From IMG/VR virus record IMGVR_UViG_2728369554_000006: 9,768 nt of DNA; one strand, written 5' to 3'. This document shows positions 1 through 9,768 of the stretch, piece by piece. Position 1 is the stretch's first letter; the number at the start of each line of letters is the position of its first letter. A model generated the notes under the pieces. That model did no database searches, was not told the DNA's origin, and was given only the letters and a program-made list of their open reading frames with translations. A program made the translations under genes and the position numbers. Source of the DNA: a virus (lineage: Duplodnaviria > Heunggongvirae > Uroviricota > Caudoviricetes).

Positions 1-3000
1 ATCACGTCTGCAAACATCGACCGTCTGCGCTTTACCTTCGGTGTGCAGGCACTGGTGGAAACCACCTCAAAGGGGGACAGGAATCCGTCGGAAGTCCGTC
101 TGCTGGTTCAGATACAGCGTAATGGTGGCTGGGTGACGGAAAAAGACATCACCATTAAGGGCAAAACCACCTCGCAGTATCTGGCCTCGGTGGTGGTGGG
201 TAACCTGCCGCCGCGCCCGTTTAATATCCGGATGCGCAGAATGACGCCGGACAGCACTACAGACCAGCTGCAGAACAAAACGCTCTGGTCGTCATACACC
301 GAAATCATCGATGTGAAACAGGGCTACCCGAACACGGCACTGGTCGGTGTACAGGTGGACTCGGAGCAGTTCGGCAGCCAGCAGGTGAGTCGTAATTATC
401 ATCTTCGCGGGCGCATTCTGCAGGTGCCGTCGAACTATAACCCGCAGACGCGGCAATACAGCGGTATCTGGGACGGAACGTTAAAACCGGCATACAGCAA
501 CAACATGGCCTGGTGTCTGTGGGATATGCTGACCCATCCGCGCTACGGCATGGGGAAACGTCTTGGTGCGGCGGATGTGGATAAATGGGCGCTGTATGTC
601 ATCGGCCAGTACTGCGACCAGTCAGTGCCGGACGGCTTTGGCGGCACGGAGCCGCGCATCACCTGTAATGCGTACCTGACCACACAGCGTAAGGCGTGGG
701 ATGTGCTCAGCGATTTCTGCTCGGCGATGCGCTGTATGCCGGTATGGAACGGGCAGACGCTGACGTTCGTGCAGGACCGACCGTCGGATAAGGCGTGGAC
801 CTATAACCGCAGTAATGTGGTGATGCCGGATGATGGCGCGCCGTTCCGCTACAGCTTCAGCGCCCTGAAGGANNNNNNNNNNCAGTATCCGGATGCGCAG
901 GATGACGCCGGACAGCACCACAGACCAGCTGCAGAACAAAACGCTCTGGTCGTCATACACCGAAATCATCGATGTGAAACAGTGCTACCCGAACACGGCA
1001 CTGGTTGGCGTACAGGTGGATTCGGAGCAGTTCGGCAGCCAGCAGGTGAGCCGTAATTATCATCTTCGCGGGCGCATTCTGCAGGTGCCGTCGAACTATA
1101 ACCCGCAGACGCGGCAATACAGCGGTATCTGGGACGGAACGTTAAAACCGGCATACAGCAACAACATGGCCTGGTGTCTGTGGGATATGCTGACCCACCC
1201 GCGCTACGGCATGGGGAAACGTCTTGGTGCGGCAGATGTGGATAAATGGGCGCTGTATGTCATCGGCCAGTACTGCGACCAGTCAGTGCCGGACGGTTTT
1301 GGCGGCACGGAGCCGCGCATCACCTGTAATGCCTACCTGACCACGCAGCGTAAGGCGTGGGATGTGCTCAGTGATTTCTGCTCGGCGATGCGCTGTATGC
1401 CGGTATGGAACGGGCAGACGCTGACGTTCGTGCAGGACCGGCCGTCGGATAAGGTGTGGACCTATAACCGCAGTAATGTGGTGATGCCGGATGATGGCGC
1501 GCCGTTCCGCTACAGTTTCAGCGCCCTGAAGGACCGCCATAATGCCGTTGAGGTGAACTGGATTGACCCGGATAACGGCTGGGAAACGGCAACAGAGCTT
1601 GTGGAGGACACGCAGGCCATTGCCCGTTACGGTCGTAATGTCACGAAGATGGATGCCTTTGGCTGTACCAGTCGGGGGCAGGCGCACCGCGCCGGGCTGT
1701 GGCTGATTAAAACAGAACTGCTGGAAACGCAGACCGTGGACTTCAGCGTGGGTGCCGAAGGGCTTCGCCATGTACCGGGCGATGTCATTGAAATCTGCGA
1801 TGATGACTATGCCGGTATCAGCACCGGTGGTCGTGTGCTGGCGGTGAACAGCCAGACCCGGACGNNNNNNNNNNTACGAAGATGGATGCCTTTGGCTGTA
1901 CCAGCCGGGGGCAGGCACACCGCGCCGGGCTGTGGCTGATTAAAACAGAACTGCTGGAAACGCAGACCGTGGATTTCAGCGTCGGCGCAGAAGGGCTTCG
2001 CCATGTACCGGGCGATGTTATTGAAATCTGCGATGATGACTATGCCGGTATCAGCACCGGTGGTCGTGTGCTGGCGGTGAACAGCCAGACCCGGACGCTG
2101 ACGCTCGACCGTGAAATCACGCTGCCATCCTCCGGTACCACGCTGATAAGCCTGGTTGACGGAAGTGGCAATCCGGTCAGCGTGGAGGTTCAGTCCGTCA
2201 CCGACGGCGTGAAGGTAAAAGTGAGCCGTGTTCCTGACGGTGTTGCTGAATACAGCGTATGGGGGCTGAAGCTGCCGACGCTGCGCCAGCGACTGTTCCG
2301 CTGCGTGAGTATCCGTGAGAACGACGACGGCACGTATGCCATCACCGCCGTGCAGCATGTGCCGGAAAAAGAGGCCATCGTGGATAACGGGGCGCACTTT
2401 GACGGCGAACAGAGTGGCACGGTGAACGGTGTCACGCCGCCAGCGGTGCAGCACCTGACTGCCGAAGTCACTGCAGACAGCGGGGAGTATCAGGTGCTGG
2501 CTCGATGGGACACACCGAAGGTGGTGAAGGGCGTGAGCTTCCTGCTCCGTCTGACCGTAACAGCGGACGACGGCAGTGAGCGGCTGGTCAGCACGGCCCG
2601 GACGACGGAAACCACATACCGCTTCACGCAACTGGCGCTGGGGAACTACAGGCTGACAGTCCGGGCGGTAAATGCGTGGGGGCAGCAGGGCGATCCGGCG
2701 TCGGTATCGTTCCGGATTGCCGCACCGGCANNNNNNNNNNCCGCAGTGTGAACACCGTTGGCAAATCGGCATTTGTGGAGGCTGTTGGCCAGCCGAGTGA
2801 TGATGCATCCGGCTATCTGAATTTTTTCAAAGGAGAGATAGGGAAAACCCATCTGGCTCAGGAGTTGTGGACGCAGATTGATAACGGTCAGCTTGCGCCT
2901 GACCTGGCTGAAATCAGGACGTCCATTACGGGTGTCAGCAATGAAATCACGCAGACCGTCAATAAGAAACTGGAAGACCAGAGTGCAGCGATCCAGCAGA

Positions 3001-3854
3001 TACAGAAGGTTCAGGTTGATACAAATAATAACCTGAACAGCATGTGGGCTGTGAAGCTGCAGCAGATGCAGGACGGACGCCTTTATATCGCGGGTATTGG
3101 TGCCGGTATTGAAAACACCCCTGACGGCATGCAGAGTCAGGTGCTGCTGGCGGCAGACAGGATTGCGATGATTAATCCTGCGAATGGCAACACAAAGCCG
3201 ATGTTTGTTGGGCAGGGCGATCAGATATACATGAATGAAGTGTTCCTGAAATATCTGACGGCTCCCACCATTACCAGCGGCGGTAATCCTCCGGCCTTTT
3301 CCCTGACACCGGACGGGCGGCTGACGGCGAAAAATGCCGATATCAGCGGTAACGTGAACGCGAACTCCGGGACGCTCAACAACGTCACGATTAACGAGAA
3401 CTGTCGGGTTCTGGGAAAACTGTCCGCCAACCAGATTGAAGGCGATCTCGTTAAAACAGTGGGCAAAGCTTTCCCCCGGGACTCCCGTGCACCGGAGCGG
3501 TGGCCATCAGGAACCATTACCGTCAGGGTTTATGACGATCAGCCGTTTGACCGGCAAATTGTTATCCCAGCGGTGGCATTCAGTGGCGCTAAACATGAGC
3601 AAGATCATACTGATATCTACTCCTCATGCCGTCTGATAGTACGAAAAAACGGTGCTGAAATTTATAACCGAACGGCTCTGGATAATACGCTGATATATAC
3701 GGGTGTTATTGATATGCCTGCAGGCAGTGGTGTAATGACACTGGAATTTTCTGTATCGGCATGGCTGGTAAATGGCTGGTATCCCACAGCAAGTATCAGC
3801 GATTTGCTGGTTGTGGTGATGAAGAAAGCCACTGCAGGCATCACGATTAGCTGA
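1..3854 (+). CDS. J: Host-specificity / tail-tip protein J (lambda J-like), 5'-partial. Coding frame is broken by 10-N scaffold gaps at 873-882, 1865-1874 and 2731-2740. Coding segments are about 1-872, 884-1864, 1876-2730 and 2742-3854, with stop TGA at 3852-3854.
   Basis: Frame 1 from base 1 translates [44 protein letters not shown]..., which matches the lambda J protein as I remember it. Later segments continue the J sequence (…[33 protein letters not shown]…, …[16 protein letters not shown]…, …[21 protein letters not shown]…). The last ~150 aa diverge from lambda J. High-GC long ORF with antisense ORFs that look spurious. Confidence 0.9.
873..882. other. Assembly gap (10 N). Sequence after the gap re-starts about 660 bp back in J, so 883-1533 is a near-identical re-copy of 222-872.
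   Basis: Run of exactly 10 n; direct comparison of flanking sequence shows overlap with scattered single-base differences. Confidence 0.9.
1865..1874. other. Assembly gap (10 N). 1876-2097 re-copies 1643-1864 with a few mismatches.
   Basis: Run of exactly 10 n; flanking sequence is duplicated with single-base differences (for example gtcggggg/gccggggg, gtgggtgcc/gtcggcgca). Confidence 0.9.
2731..2740. other. Assembly gap (10 N) that hides roughly 75 codons of J, judged against remembered lambda J.
   Basis: The protein jumps from …[10 protein letters not shown] to RSVNTVGKS…; in lambda J these are separated by about 75 residues. Confidence 0.7.
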
Positions 3855-3872
3855 ATTTTATAACCCAGATAC

Positions 3873-3900
3873 GGGCGCCAGAAATGGCGCCTTTTTTATT
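3873..3900 (+). terminator. Rho-independent terminator downstream of J
   Basis: GGCGCC (3874-3879), loop agaaat, GGCGCC (3886-3891), followed immediately by TTTTTTATTT, 20 bp after the J stop codon. Confidence 0.65.
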
Positions 3901-3912
3901 TGTGGAGTGAAT

Positions 3913-5955
3913 ATGGCAGTACAGATTTCAGGTGTGCTGAAAGATGGTGCGGGAAAACCAATACAGAACTGCACTATTCAACTGAAGGCAAAGCGTAACA
4001 GCACCNNNNNNNNNNNNNNNNNNNNNNNNNNNNNNNNNNNNNNNNNNNNNNNNNNNNNNNNNNNNNNNNNNNNNNNNNNNNNNNNNNNNNNNNNNNNNNN
4101 NNNNNNNNNNNNNNNNNNNNNNNNNNNNNNNNNNNNNNNNNNNNNNNNNNNNNNNNNNNNNNNNNNCGCCATGACGGAAGATGATGTCATGCCGGAGGCA
4201 CTGCGCCGTTTTGAGCTGATGGTGAATGAAGTGGCACGTCATGCCGGAGCATCATCACAGAGCGCAGCGGCAGCAAAGAAATCCGAAACTGCAGCGGCAT
4301 CATCGAAGAACGCGGCGAAAACCTCAGAAACGAATGCAGCTAACAGCGCACAGGCGGCAGCGGCCTCGCAGACTGCATCGGCAAACTCCGCGACAGCAGC
4401 CAAAAAATCAGAAACCAGCGCGAAAAATAGCGAGACAGCCACAAAGGCCAGCGAAAAAAACGCAAAATCCAGCCAGACGGCAGCGAAAACCAGTGAGACG
4501 AATGCCAAAGACAGTGAAGCCAACGCAAAGGTGAGCGAAACAGCGGCGGCGAACTCGGCGAAAGCATCGGCAGCAAGCCAGACGGCAGCAAAAGCAAGTG
4601 AAGATGCTGCCAGAGAATACGCAAACCAGACAGCAGAGCCGTACAGATATGTTTTACAGCCGCTGCCGGATGTGTGGATACCCTTTAATGATTCGCTGGA
4701 TATGATTACGGGCTATTCTCCGGGTTATAAAAAAGTGAAGATTGGTGATAATGTGGTTCAGGTTGCCAGTGATAAACAGGTTAATTTCAGTCGCGCATCA
4801 ACGGCAACATATATCAACAAATCTGGCGAACTGAAAACGGCGGAAATTAATGAGCCGCGATTTGAGTGTGATGGCCTGCTTATTGAGGGACAAAGAACGA
4901 ACTACATGCTCAATTCGGAAAGTCCAGCCAGCTGGGGGAAGTCATCAAACATGGATGTGCCCGAAACCGGGACGGATAGTTTTGGTTTTACTTATGGAAA
5001 GTTTGTCTGCAACGATTCTCTGGTTGGGCAAACTTCGGCTATTAATATGGCATCAATTGCTGCAACAAAGTCAGTTGATGTCTCAGGCGATAACAAGTAC
5101 GTGACAACCTCATGCCGTTTTAAAACAGAACGACAGGTAAGGTTACGTATACGGTTTGATAAGTATGATGGTAGTGCAACAACTTTTCTTGGCGATGCGT
5201 ACATTGATACGCAAACGCTTGAAATTAATATGACAGGTGGTGCTGCCGGCAGAATTACGGCACGAGTCAGGAAGGATAAGACCACGGGCTGGATTTTTGC
5301 AGAGGCAACGATTCAGGCAATTGATGGTGAGTTAAAAATAGGCTCTCAGATACAGTATTCTCCTGAGCAGGGTGGGGCAACAGTATCTGGTGACTATATT
5401 TATCTTGCCACCCCACAAGTAGAGAATGGGCCGTGTGTATCATCATTTATTATTTCAGGAGGCAGCGCAACGACAAGAGCCAGTGATTTGGTTAGTATCC
5501 CCACCAGAAATAATCTTTATAAGTTACCATTTACTTTTTTACTTGAGATTCATAAAAACTGGGATATTGCACCAAACGCCGCACCCCGCGTGTGGGATAT
5601 AGCAGCAGCCAATACCGGGCAATCAGCAATTGCAGCAATCAACAGAGGTAGTGGTAAGTTATATATGAGTCTGTCAAACCCTTCAGGCTCGTATGTTAAT
5701 AGCGCAGCGACAGATGTATTTGCAGAGAAAACCACATTTGGATGTATTGCAAAAGCTGATGGTCACTTTCATGTGGTGACAAATGGTAAAGCGGTTAATG
5801 AAGTTTATTGTGAATATAATGGCGTGACCGCTGATAAAAATATCCGATTTGGAGGGCAGACGAATACTGGAGAACGACATCTGTTTGGCCATATTCGCAA
5901 TTTCCGCATATGGCATAAAGAATTAAATGACAGGCAATTAAAAGAGGTCGTATGA
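3913..5955 (+). CDS. stf: Side tail fibre protein (lambda Stf-like N-terminus, Ser/Ala/Thr repeat shaft, C-terminal LamG/concanavalin-like receptor-binding domain). N-terminal region is partly masked by Ns.
   Basis: ATG at 3913 is preceded by GGAG (3903-3906). N-terminus MAVQISGVLKDGAGKPIQNCTIQLKAKRNST and …AMTEDDVMPEALRRFELMVNEVAR resemble the lambda/O157 Stf N-terminus. The C-terminus …LFGHIRNFRIWHKELNDRQLKEV fits the typical ending of a LamG-like jelly-roll domain. The 681-aa ORF is in frame across the N run. Confidence 0.85.
   Translation: MAVQISGVLKDGAGKPIQNCTIQLKAKRNSTXXXXXXXXXXXXXXXXXXXXXXXXXXXXXXXXXXXXXXXXXXXXXXXXXXXXXXAMTEDDVMPEALRRFELMVNEVARHAGASSQSAAAAKKSETAAASSKNAAKTSETNAANSAQAAAASQTASANSATAAKKSETSAKNSETATKASEKNAKSSQTAAKTSETNAKDSEANAKVSETAAANSAKASAASQTAAKASEDAAREYANQTAEPYRYVLQPLPDVWIPFNDSLDMITGYSPGYKKVKIGDNVVQVASDKQVNFSRASTATYINKSGELKTAEINEPRFECDGLLIEGQRTNYMLNSESPASWGKSSNMDVPETGTDSFGFTYGKFVCNDSLVGQTSAINMASIAATKSVDVSGDNKYVTTSCRFKTERQVRLRIRFDKYDGSATTFLGDAYIDTQTLEINMTGGAAGRITARVRKDKTTGWIFAEATIQAIDGELKIGSQIQYSPEQGGATVSGDYIYLATPQVENGPCVSSFIISGGSATTRASDLVSIPTRNNLYKLPFTFLLEIHKNWDIAPNAAPRVWDIAAANTGQSAIAAINRGSGKLYMSLSNPSGSYVNSAATDVFAEKTTFGCIAKADGHFHVVTNGKAVNEVYCEYNGVTADKNIRFGGQTNTGERHLFGHIRNFRIWHKELNDRQLKEVV
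4006..4166. other. 161-nt N run (masked or unknown sequence) inside the stf 5' region; reading frame is preserved across it
   Basis: Contiguous n characters; the ORF continues in the same frame on both sides, suggesting 1:1 masking rather than a sized gap. Confidence 0.8.
4255..4615 (+). repeat. Tandem degenerate repeats encoding a Ser/Ala/Thr/Lys-rich fibre shaft (motifs such as AAKTSETNAK and AKKSETSAKNSETA)
   Basis: Reiterated gcagcgaaaaccagtgagacgaatgc-type units visible in the DNA; translated protein shows periodic K-x-SET-x-A motifs. Confidence 0.75.
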
Positions 5956-6230
5956 AAGATTTAACTTTGAAGTTTCATGACAAACTGCAGTTTAAGGCCT
6001 TCCTGTCATCTCTTGGCTGGGCGGAAGATGAAGACCTCCAGAATAAACTGTTAGTTGATGAAATTGGTTTCACCTACACAGAAACAGGGGTAACAGAAGA
6101 GGGAGAACCTGTCTGTATCCGGAATGATGGTTATTTTGTCAACATTCGCATTCTTGATGACTTGTTTGATGTTTCTGTATTCTCTGATTATGTCGTGGAG
6201 CTGGAAACACCGCTTCGGGAATGGAGCTGA
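5952..6230 (+). CDS. Hypothetical small acidic protein (92 aa), translationally coupled to stf
   Basis: ATG overlaps the stf stop (ATGA at 5952-5955); AGAGG lies 5 nt upstream; D/E-rich translation; ORF directly abuts the next gene. No family recognised. Confidence 0.6.
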   Translation: MKDLTLKFHDKLQFKAFLSSLGWAEDEDLQNKLLVDEIGFTYTETGVTEEGEPVCIRNDGYFVNIRILDDLFDVSVFSDYVVELETPLREWS

Positions 6231-6237
6231 AAGGAGG
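6231..6237 (+). promoter_or_regulatory. Shine-Dalgarno sequence (AAGGAGG) for the 97-aa ORF
   Basis: Perfect AAGGAGG with a 5-nt spacer to the ATG at 6243. Confidence 0.7.
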
Positions 6238-6242
6238 AAATA

Positions 6243-6536
6243 ATGGATATAAGCCCCTTACTTCATGCACTTTGTGCTGTGGCTGCGCAGATACTGGTTG
6301 GTCTTTTTACCGGAAACTGGGCTTACGGAGCGATAGCCGGTTGTACGTTCTTCATTGCGCGTGAACATACCCAGGCAGAATATCGCTGGATTGAAATGTT
6401 CGGGCATGGCAAGCGAATGAATATGCCGTGGTGGGGCGGTTTTGATCCGCGTGCTTGGGATGTGGCAAGCCTGATGGATTTTGCTGTGCCGGTGGTGGCG
6501 TGTCTGCTGGTCTGGCTGTTGGTTAATCGTGGGTGA
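6243..6536 (+). CDS. Hypothetical small integral membrane protein (97 aa, two predicted hydrophobic helices, Trp-rich loop)
   Basis: Strong SD; hydrophobic stretches LLHALCAVAAQILVGLFTGNWAYGAIAGCTFFIA and VASLMDFAVPVVACLLVWLLV separated by a polar loop (RMNMPWWGGFDPRAW). No family recognised. Confidence 0.65.
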   Translation: MDISPLLHALCAVAAQILVGLFTGNWAYGAIAGCTFFIAREHTQAEYRWIEMFGHGKRMNMPWWGGFDPRAWDVASLMDFAVPVVACLLVWLLVNRG

Positions 6537-6546
6537 AAAAAGGTGA

Positions 6547-6675
6547 GCTGTATATGCAACGGAGGAAGAAACCCCGTTGCTGGAAGCCAGGAAAAAGTAT
6601 CGGGTGTTGCTGAACCGGGTTGATACATCAACTGCACCTGATATTGAGTGGCCTGCTGTCCCTGTTATGGAGTAA
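6547..6675 (+). pseudogene. tfaD: 5'-truncated remnant of a tail fibre assembly gene (tfa C-terminal ~40 codons, no start codon)
   Basis: Translation [42 protein letters not shown] matches the conserved Tfa C-terminus (…[16 protein letters not shown]…). An in-frame stop lies immediately upstream (6544-6546) and there is no start codon. The symbol is tentative, taken from the position relative to ybcY in the K-12 DLP12 prophage as I remember it. Confidence 0.7.
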
Positions 6676-6729
6676 TCATTGGGATTATGCCGCAGCACGT
6701 CTTAAGCAAGAACGTGCTGTGGTTGGATG

Positions 6730-7386
6730 CTATTTTTTCCCTGAAGCGGAAAACATTACTACAGTACCTTGAACCTTGGTTTTAACATTCTCGAAATGCT
6801 CTGAGAGTATATGTGTTAAGCCTTCTTCGGAATCTTTTGTGTTTGAAAAGATGCCTTTCTGATTGTAAATGCGCATCAGTTTTTGACCGAAGCTATTGTG
6901 CACAACTCCATCGCCAAGAATTGTGGCTCCGTATAGAGTTCCATCGTCAGTTAAGGCCTGCGCCGCATTGCGTATTACACAGCTTTTTGTAGATATATTT
7001 CCAGGCAGGCAGTGAAGAAGGTAAAACATGGAAATGGAATCAAATTGACCATGTAACGCCGCGGGATAAGGTTCAAAAACATCATGGCTAATTTTATGTT
7101 TAATTTTTGATTCCCCTGCCCTTGTAGATGCCGCGTTCAGGCTAGCTTCGTTCAAATCCATTAAAGATATCAGACTACTCTCAGGTACGTGAGTAAGGTA
7201 AAACCCAGTTCCAACACCAATATCCAGATGGTTGTTACCTAAATGTTCCAGAAAGTGTGGAAGAAGGTGTTCCTTTGTAGGACATCCCCATGCAAGCCGA
7301 TTTGATACACCCAAAACCCACCAGTCATAAAGCTTTAGGGTAAGTGGTGTGTAAATTTTAGCCCCATCATCTGTGTTTTTTTTCAT
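6730..7386 (-). CDS. ybcY: Class I SAM-dependent methyltransferase (ybcY-like), apparently intact. A further in-frame ATG sits at 7396-7398.
   Basis: Motif I LDIGVGTGF, an acidic residue ending the next strand (SLMDLN), and a motif II-like FDSISMFYLLHCLP. GGTGA lies upstream of the MKKNTDDG start. Position and orientation between two tfa remnants match remembered ybcY in DLP12. No DPPY/NPPY motif, so it is probably not a DNA N6/N4 methyltransferase. Confidence 0.7.
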   Translation of the reverse strand: MKKNTDDGAKIYTPLTLKLYDWWVLGVSNRLAWGCPTKEHLLPHFLEHLGNNHLDIGVGTGFYLTHVPESSLISLMDLNEASLNAASTRAGESKIKHKISHDVFEPYPAALHGQFDSISMFYLLHCLPGNISTKSCVIRNAAQALTDDGTLYGATILGDGVVHNSFGQKLMRIYNQKGIFSNTKDSEEGLTHILSEHFENVKTKVQGTVVMFSASGKK

Positions 7387-7454
7387 TAATTTCACCATGT
7401 TATAGTTTTATTTATGAATTAAATCAATTATGGCGATGAATTACAAGGGGTTAA

Positions 7455-7760
7455 ATGCTGCCGCAGCATAGCGATATTGAAATAGCCTGGTATGCTTCGA
7501 TACAGCAGGAGCCGAATGGCTGGAAGACCGTCACCACACAGTTCTACATCCAGGAATTCAGTGAGTATATTGCGCCACTGCAGGATGCTGTAGATCTGGA
7601 AATCGCAACGGAGGAAGAAAGATCGTTGCTGGAGGCATGGAATAAATATCGGGTATTGTTGAATCGTGTTGATACATCAGTAGCTCTGGGTATGAAGCTG
7701 TTTGTAACTCATATTACAGTAACGGCCATTACTATATCGAAGGTGCAAAATGTATATTGA
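7455..7760 (+). pseudogene. tfaX: Truncated or chimeric tail fibre assembly protein fragment (tfaX-like, 101 codons)
   Basis: …[39 protein letters not shown] matches the Tfa C-terminal region, but the ORF then diverges ([14 protein letters not shown]…) and lacks the N-terminal half of a full Tfa of about 190 aa. Confidence 0.6.
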
Positions 7761-7889
7761 TTTGATATTTTATAAATTTGCTTCGAATCTGGCATGTCAA
7801 CTTTTGATTAAAGTAATATCAGTTTTCGGCGAAAAAAGGACCGTGTACATGAGACGATTTCATACAAGAATAACAAAAATATGAATATG

Positions 7890-7921
7890 CTCCCAATGCA
7901 ATATATGTTTTGCATTGGGAG
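7890..7921. terminator. Perfect 11-12 bp inverted repeat between the convergent tfaX-like ORF and the hydrolase gene; possible bidirectional terminator or regulatory hairpin
   Basis: ctcccaatgca (7890-7900), 10-nt AT loop, tgcattgggag (7911-7921). Flanks are AT-rich but the T-runs do not directly abut the stem on either strand. Confidence 0.35.
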
Positions 7922-7943
7922 CAAATAGCGGAATATTTTGAAG

Positions 7944-9428
7944 TTATTGTATTTCTGCTTCAGAATTTCCTGGGCAGTATATATTTTCTATTTTTTGTGG
8001 AGTGATCAGGTGATGTACAACTGCTTTATCTACACATAAATTAACTCCGGTGAGAGCTAATGTATGCCCATCACCATTTATTGTTAGTAACGGGCTGGAA
8101 AATTTCTCTGCCATCTTACGGGCATTAATCCAGGGCGTTGTTGGGTCGTATTTGTGTGCTACAAACAGTAAACCAGAGGGCAGAACAGTATTTTTCAGGC
8201 GAGTTTTGTTCAGGTCGCTATGTATTGGCCATAATTCACAAAAATCAGGTGAATCGGAACGTCCATTGTCAAAGTTAATAGCCGGGAAGGCATTCGCAAG
8301 AGCGTCTTTTCGGGATTTTCGCTCTTCTGGTGTTAATTGCTCATCCCCCTGATCTACACAAAGGATTACCCCCGAAGCATCGCTTGACTCTTCTGAGGCT
8401 ATCGGAGCACTGAGCGCAGTTTCAATTTCATTACTGACAATCCCCTGAGAGAACTGGCGTATGGCAGTTGCAAGGGTTGGCCATGATGAACGCCATAGCA
8501 GAAGGTCTGTTGTTAATGATATGAGTTCATCTGAAGATATATTTTCTCCCTTACTGTCTAATAAAGGTTTGTGATGTAATTTTGATAATAGCTCATGGAA
8601 CTGAGTTATTGCCTTATCTCTGTCTGAAGAAAGCGGGCAACTTTTTGTACGCGCACACCAGGATGCAAAGCGATCAAACGTTTCCTGATAACTCTGTGCC
8701 TGTTTGAGTTGCCATGTGAAGTTGTCCTCCAGGTCATCGATATCGACGACTCCATCAAGAACGATAGATCTTACGTTGTAGGGAAAACGTTCTGCATATA
8801 AGGCTGCAATTTGAGTTCCATACGAATACGCCACGGCTGTCAGTTGTTTATCCCCCAAGGCTTGCCTAATACGATCAATATCGTATACAGCCTCGTTAGA
8901 GCCGATATGGCGAATGACTTCGGCTCCGGTATTATGGATACAGGCATTAATTTTATTTAATACTTGTTGCTTTTCGGTTATGTTTTCCTGAGTCTCTGTA
9001 TCTGATTGCCGGCAGTTTATTGTCGGAGTGGACTGTCCGACGCCTCGAGGATCAAATCCAATAATATCCCATGACTCACGAAGATTTGTGACTGGCCAGT
9101 CAAAGTTAATATAAGGATTTATGCCTGGTAACCCGGGACCACCACTTATTATCAGGATACTTCCTTTATGCTTGCTTTTTGCCGGCAATTTTGTCAACGC
9201 TAGTTTGACTTGTGATTTTTTTTCATAAGAAGCATCTCCGCCTGTGTCTGTATATTTTAATGGAACAGACAAATAACCACATAGTAAGTCAGGAGACGGT
9301 TTTTCCTCACCAAACCAGTGGTTGAATTGACTGGCCATACAGGATTGCCACTGTATCTGCTGGGCAGATACGGTTACTGGTAGAAGTAACGTTAAAACAA
9401 CTTTGAAATGAGTAATTATTTTTCGCAT
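7944..9428 (-). CDS. Secreted alpha/beta-hydrolase, S33 (prolyl/tripeptidyl aminopeptidase-like) serine peptidase family, with N-terminal Sec signal peptide
   Basis: 494-aa ORF. N-terminus MRKIITHFKVVLTLLLPVTVSAQQ is signal-peptide-like. GFDPRGVGQS motif, nucleophile elbow AYSYGT (G-x-S-x-G-like) and C-terminal NGDGHTLAL (candidate catalytic His) are typical of the alpha/beta-hydrolase S33/TAP family. Markedly AT-rich relative to J. Confidence 0.8.
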   Translation of the reverse strand: MRKIITHFKVVLTLLLPVTVSAQQIQWQSCMASQFNHWFGEEKPSPDLLCGYLSVPLKYTDTGGDASYEKKSQVKLALTKLPAKSKHKGSILIISGGPGLPGINPYINFDWPVTNLRESWDIIGFDPRGVGQSTPTINCRQSDTETQENITEKQQVLNKINACIHNTGAEVIRHIGSNEAVYDIDRIRQALGDKQLTAVAYSYGTQIAALYAERFPYNVRSIVLDGVVDIDDLEDNFTWQLKQAQSYQETFDRFASWCARTKSCPLSSDRDKAITQFHELLSKLHHKPLLDSKGENISSDELISLTTDLLLWRSSWPTLATAIRQFSQGIVSNEIETALSAPIASEESSDASGVILCVDQGDEQLTPEERKSRKDALANAFPAINFDNGRSDSPDFCELWPIHSDLNKTRLKNTVLPSGLLFVAHKYDPTTPWINARKMAEKFSSPLLTINGDGHTLALTGVNLCVDKAVVHHLITPQKIENIYCPGNSEAEIQ

Positions 9429-9566
9429 TGTGTCTCTGAATATCGGAATAAAGATAAAATTTGAATATATTGAGGTCTTGTGTTGCGGTAAGAGATTACA
9501 CGTTATGACATAGGTTAAATGCTTACAAAATTAGTGGATATTGTCTACTTGTAACTGTAAACAAAT

Positions 9567-9595
9567 TCCCCGGGGTTATACAATACCACCGGGGA
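9567..9595 (-). terminator. Candidate intrinsic terminator of ompT
   Basis: On the minus strand: GC stem CCCCGG/CCGGGG (plus 9568-9573 and 9589-9594), a rather long ~15-nt loop, then AUUUGUUU, about 20 nt after the ompT stop. Confidence 0.4.
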
Positions 9596-9614
9596 GAAAA
9601 TCTGGTTAACTTCG

Positions 9615-9768
9615 TTAAAAGGTGTACTTAAGACCAGCAGTAGTGATGAAGTTATAGTTTTCTATGCCTGCACCATTTTTGCTGTAGTCTGAAGTGTTAT
9701 CATTGTGATCATAAAGTGAAGTATTACCTTTTTTATTCGTAACCCGATTCCATGCGCCTTCAACATAA
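9615..9768 (-). CDS. ompT: Outer membrane protease OmpT (omptin), C-terminal 50 codons plus stop; gene continues beyond the window end
   Basis: Reverse-strand translation YVEGAWNRVTNKKGNTSLYDHNDNTSDYSKNGAGIENYNFITTAGLKYTF* matches the remembered E. coli OmpT C-terminus, including the terminal aromatic beta-barrel signature. Confidence 0.85.
   Translation of the reverse strand, partial: YVEGAWNRVTNKKGNTSLYDHNDNTSDYSKNGAGIENYNFITTAGLKYTF

Follow-up and report, generated by a model that had tools for sequence, protein, structure and literature searches.

The stretch of DNA analysed here (the window: 9,768 nucleotides of the IMG/VR virus record IMGVR_UViG_2728369554_000006, Caudoviricetes) contains repeated and slightly diverged parts of a phage tail-tip gene, which raises the question whether this gene has really been duplicated in part or whether the repeats were created when the sequence was put together. 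Four runs of N occur in the window, three of 10 N each (873-882, 1865-1874 and 2731-2740) and one of 161 N (4006-4166), and they divide it into the five pieces A (1-872), B (883-1864), C (1875-2730), D (2741-4005) and E (4167-9768). Pieces A to D represent the lambdoid tail-tip gene J, the domains of which were found in order by a Pfam search. Our analysis indicates that the J repeats are very probably an assembly or scaffolding artefact, i.e. a false duplication across gaps that resulted from near-identical prophage repeats.

The J part of piece D (2741-3854) includes the stop codon and is followed on the same plus strand by a terminator-like hairpin with a T run (3873-3892) and by an open reading frame for a side tail fibre of the stf type (3907-5955; Pfam phage_tail_N), which is split by the 161-N gap. 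No lom (Ail/Lom) gene is present between J and the tail-fibre gene (3855-3906), a place where many close relatives carry one. Inside the tail-fibre gene, the repeat finder reported five diverged 41-nt direct repeats (4303-4616; 61-76% identity to the reference copy) with a start-to-start spacing in multiples of 21 nt, which would fit a 7-residue periodicity of the protein; this family looks like an ordinary repeat of the fibre shaft. Further downstream, small open reading frames and remnants of tail-fibre-assembly genes are followed by genes for a SAM methyltransferase (6730-7398) and an alpha/beta hydrolase (7944-9428), both on the minus strand. The methyltransferase gene is flanked by a 75-nt direct repeat (6556-6630 and 7605-7679; 84% identical), and both copies of it sit in tail-fibre-assembly (Caudo_TAP) remnants according to the annotation in two relatives (L043 and L047). 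The exact-protein look-up listed a protein identical to the 494-aa hydrolase in 13,736 blocks of the collection. In relatives the hydrolase gene adjoins ompT; hence, the window covers the right-hand end of a prophage that occupies the DLP12/ompT site in an E. coli-like chromosome.

The sequence-only reading had reported that 883-1533 repeats 222-872 with roughly a dozen differences and that 1876-2097 repeats 1643-1864. Both repeats were recovered by the repeat finder and by base-by-base comparison. The first one, on the plus strand like all J sequence in the window, has an offset of 661, extends over 651 nt and is 97.2% identical; the differences are real, but their number had been set too low, as there are 18 of them. 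The second repeat has an offset of 233 and 222 nt with 7 differences, and it gains one base (1642/1875) when inspected closely, giving 223 nt with 8 differences (1642-1864 in B and 1875-2097 in C). Two of the 18 differences in the first pair fall within its first three bases; the 'CAG' at 883-885 is the state of another natural allele, hence this overlap does begin at 883. The differences had been described as mostly synonymous, which agrees with 21 of the 24 classifiable sites. In the first pair 14 are synonymous and 3 non-synonymous, in the second 7 and 0, with one unclassifiable edge codon in each, and the differences sit almost wholly at third codon positions. Length and identity of the repeats are far beyond chance, and the copies are the same stretch of J. 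Moreover, both repeats abut a 10-N run exactly, since 222-872 is followed by the N at 873-882 and the second copy at 883-1533, and 1642-1864 by the N at 1865-1874 and the second copy at 1875-2097. A tandem duplication would be expected to show an uninterrupted, sequenced junction, but both copy-to-copy junctions consist of N only.

The true distances between the pieces were obtained by mapping them on about 40 independent J loci, comprising closed E. coli genomes, 29 IMG/VR contigs and 9 metagenome contigs, with J numbered according to the intact 3480-nt gene of strain 201609 (L002). In this numbering piece A corresponds to J nt 310-1181, piece B to 531-1512, piece C to 1290-2145 and the J part of piece D to 2367-3480. 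The spacing was the same at every locus covering both flanks, namely -651 for A/B, -223 for B/C, +221 for C/D and +179 for D/E, and the sole outlier (L028, for A/B) contains only part of J. The flanks of join 1 (873-882) and join 2 (1865-1874) therefore truly overlap by 651 and 223 nt, respectively. The third 10-N join (2731-2740), which the sequence-only reading had missed, hides a loss and not an overlap: approximately 221 nt are missing, equal to J nt 2146-2366. According to Pfam, this loss corresponds to the first 75 positions of the domain Ig_J_second, and piece D starts at profile position 76. The start of D was also considered as the edge of a naturally truncated J, such as the DLP12 remnant of E. 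coli B; this was rejected, because the remnant begins about 700 nt further upstream and not at J nt 2367. The 161-N run differs from the shorter ones, as its flanks, within the part of the side tail-fibre gene that encodes the N-terminal domain, lie 179 nt apart in 10 relatives, and it looks like a size estimate from read pairs. The closeness of 161 N to 179 nt points to a size-estimating scaffolder, for which 10 N would have acted as the floor value. The length of the 10-N runs is unrelated to the true distances and behaves like a fixed or minimum placeholder. The Velvet manual states that gaps below 10 bp are written as 10 N, and NCBI treats runs of at least 10 N as gaps; our search for a citable literature source of the 10-N convention found none.

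The geometry has direct consequences for the coding sequence. The offsets of 661 (3n+1) and 233 (3n+2) place the pieces A, B and C in the window frames 1, 2 and 1, and as neither offset is a multiple of three, the reading frame is broken at joins 1 and 2. The ORF finder returned four J fragments (43-1056, 893-1939, 1882-2751 and 2676-3854), and a continuous open reading frame of about 1130-1160 codons, as expected for lambda gpJ, is absent from the window owing to the frame shifts and the missing 221 nt. The domain Phage-tail_3 was found by Pfam in three pieces, with positions 1-62 in A, 1-162 in B and 99-162 in C. Piece A carries FNIII-A_GpJ and the start of Phage-tail_3, piece B the end of FNIII-A and the complete Phage-tail_3, piece C the end of Phage-tail_3 and Ig_J, and piece D Ig_J_second from position 76, Phage_Tail_Tip and Ig_GpJ_C. 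Across A to D the canonical domain order of J is thus kept, and intact J genes show it as well. The earlier warning that the J coordinates and frame in the window are not those of a faithful single gene was justified, given three joins, the frames 1, 2 and 1, and 221 lost nucleotides.

Intact J genes elsewhere gave no hint of such a structure. A tandem J duplication was not found in any of the approximately 40 comparator J loci. Ten further loci were fetched via the flanking hydrolase gene, and nine of them have one J each, of 1131-1230 aa and with a single domain set; in six of these nine, no inserted module separates J from the hydrolase and methyltransferase genes. J itself is common, since thousands of complete E. 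coli genomes match the J region at 95-99%, and a complete E. coli genome has J-like sequence at a median of 3 and at up to 15 places.

The comparison with these genomes also showed which allele each piece represents. Piece A is 99.8% identical to the J gene of E. coli BCE049 (L003, 9001-9872; 2 mismatches). Piece C aligns to this BCE049 gene with 99.2% identity (L003, 9981-10836), to that of JNEC-KY180 with 99.3% and to J in K-12-derived strains with 99.2%. The segments of JNEC-KY180 that match A and C best are separated by 108 nt, and both belong to the annotated gpJ. At all 26 discriminating sites A and C carry the BCE049 state (18 of 18 in the first pair, 8 of 8 in the second). Piece B is only 96.7% identical to BCE049 J, with 34 differing sites along its full length, some of them in the 108 nt that separate A from C. 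Its closest match, at 98.6%, is the J gene of strain 2009C-3133 (L004), which matches A at only 97.2% and C at only 95.4%, and B has the state of this strain at 20 of the 26 sites. Thus, A and C represent one lambda-type allele and B a different one. Among 5,426 complete E. coli genomes no close relative of B was found (best match 98.6%, while A reaches 99.8% and C 99.3%). A 61-mer specific for B (window 1320-1380) had 0 matches in the GTDB representative genomes; it led to the 29 IMG/VR and 9 metagenome loci, none of which is identical to the window, with a best identity to B of 98.0%. It may represent a mosaic allele of lower frequency, or a consensus built from two or more paralogues.

Each of the 26 discriminating sites is polymorphic among other J genes, with both states represented (51 loci; this set is biased to carriers of the B-specific 61-mer, and at four sites the A/C state is found within it only in BCE049, although A has matches of 99.5% identity or more in six closed genomes). 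Hence, the differences between the copies are inherited allele differences and neither errors nor mutations acquired after a duplication. The J part of piece D has a different type of 3' end, being 98.1-98.4% identical to the J genes of FUJ80154 and of E. coli B type (BLR(DE3)); BCE049 J barely matches it, and the alignment of the two is confined to window 3041-3404, at 76% identity. The J sequence of the window therefore runs from allele 1 to allele 2, back to allele 1 and then to a different type of 3' end, with join 3 linking the lambda-type 5' part to this end. A single closed genome with A/C, B and D together was looked for and not found; BCE049 and JNEC-KY180 are the relatives of A and C, FUJ80154 and E. 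coli B are those of D, and B has no close relative. As a separate observation, the first 737 nt of piece E (4167-4903) are 99.6% identical to the tail fibre of L047 (GCA_964050865.1); the J gene of L047 reaches only 82-84% identity to A, B and D. This pattern may reflect the usual mosaicism of prophages, or the 161-N gap may also join different prophages.

The geometry of the joins, the allele identities, the standing polymorphism and the absence of the structure elsewhere were observed directly, and from them a probable course of events inside the assembler can be reconstructed. The sample contained at least two J copies, about 97% identical over the conserved 5' two-thirds of the gene. The assembler would neither have merged them nor carried each of them through, which would have left separate contigs of 850-1000 nt. 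Pieces A and C come from the lambda-type allele, B comes from another one, and D has the different type of 3' end. A scaffolder, using read pairs or a reference, would then have ordered these contigs by their position along J. Finding no positive gap, it would have inserted the fixed 10-N placeholder, for the overlaps of 651 and 223 nt and for the hole of 221 nt alike. The outcome mimics two diverged tandem partial duplications with frame shifts. Two points speak against this account. Identical runs between A and B reach 146 nt, and the assembler would have had to phase across them with longer reads or pairs, which is plausible. Join 3 is odd if 10 N was a floor estimate, because about 221 nt are missing where zero or fewer would be expected; a better fit would be that C and D derive from different prophages, or that a second, reference-guided step used fixed spacers. 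The resident J of the prophage could be a mosaic of A, C and D into which B intruded, or B could itself be the resident gene.

The sequence-only reading had already suspected a scaffold stitched together from distinct J copies, as paralogues in one genome. The stitching is well supported by the allele order 1-2-1, by the colinear comparators, by the frame shifts at the joins and by the fact that the copies end at N runs. Besides the third join, that reading had overlooked that A and C share an allele from which B deviates, and that the tail-fibre gene contains the 161-N gap. As for the source of the copies, we infer that the two alleles are most likely paralogues in one multi-prophage genome. 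The same artefact could have arisen from the J alleles of two strains, in a mixed culture or a metagenome bin. The window by itself does not tell paralogues from strain variants, the B-specific 61-mer is present in contigs of human-gut metagenomes, and gaps of the same kind have been attributed to subspecies polymorphism (Tang et al., PMC3528712). However, every join and gap falls within J or within the sequence for the N-terminal domain of the tail fibre, both of which occur more than once in most E. coli genomes (median 2-3 places per genome), and several J copies per genome are the norm in E. coli. Moreover, a mixture of strains should also have fragmented the remaining 5.6 kb of the window from 4167 onwards, including the hydrolase and methyltransferase genes, yet this region has no N run and no long duplication. 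These points make a strain mixture improbable, although it is the best surviving of the alternatives.

Genuine tandem partial duplications within J, with the N runs as short unsequenced stretches, are far less probable still. Nothing positive was found in their favour, apart from the fact that the N runs block the direct view of the junctions. The copies stop exactly at the N runs, and the structure occurs in no comparator. Furthermore, the outer pieces carry one allele and the middle piece another, an arrangement that duplication followed by divergence does not yield. All differences between the copies are pre-existing polymorphisms and none of them is private, the frames are broken, and the third, similar join hides a deletion. 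The earlier judgement that a genuine tandem duplication is less likely than stitching is supported by the empty search of the approximately 40 loci, the 1-2-1 order and the lack of private differences. A comparably slight chance is left for a real tandem array of diverged J cassettes that could diversify the tail tip by recombination, the N runs then being short unreadable junctions. Finally, N runs as masks set by the data provider over real sequence, although masked stretches shown as N have been described for one collection, are the most improbable explanation of all and were rejected on the geometry of the joins, because masking would keep the flanks colinear and the length unchanged, but here we see overlaps of 651 and 223 nt, a skip of 221 nt and 161 N in place of 179 nt.

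The scaffolding artefact, our preferred explanation, has documented counterparts. Ko et al. (2022, PMC9516828) list a gap that separates the copies on the same scaffold among the hallmarks of false (heterotype) duplication, and for false heterotype duplications they cite Kelley & Salzberg 2010. As in the cases of Ko et al., diverged copies of one locus stand next to each other on a scaffold across a gap, have their own variants and break the gene models; unlike there, where diploid haplotypes were involved, the copies in the window are most likely paralogous prophage genes of a haploid bacterium. Of the features used to recognise false duplications, three are seen here, namely a gap between abutting copies, allele-specific variants and absence from independent assemblies. 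In bacterial scaffolds, Tang, Gong & Edwards (2012, PMC3528712) traced gaps with overlapping flanking contigs to repeats of 500-700 bp that are similar without being identical. Their Group A gaps resemble our joins in that neighbouring contigs overlap and yet remain unmerged, with repeats of a few hundred bp in two similar copies, although their case was a Newbler assembly of Dehalobacter from a metagenome. In addition, short-read assemblies of O157-type E. coli genomes are known to be broken up by the homogeneity of their lambdoid prophages (PMC7175801).

Compared with gpJ of bacteriophage lambda, the protein responsible for tip attachment and host specificity, the window has the domains FNIII-A, Phage-tail_3, Ig_J, Ig_J_second, Phage_Tail_Tip and Ig_GpJ_C in the usual order; it departs from a single gene in that three joins break the frame, two stretches are duplicated, one is missing and at least two alleles are mixed. 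A gene caller applied to the window would produce three or four J fragments or 'pseudogenes' as well as an apparent duplication of Phage-tail_3. Annotation, J typing, the inference of host range and the counting of copy number would all be wrong if based on this stretch. Draft genomes can be screened for false duplications in prophage modules by looking for the same pattern, near-identical sequence on both sides of a fixed 10-N run. Regarding phage biology, the J repeats are an ordinary artefact and bring nothing new.
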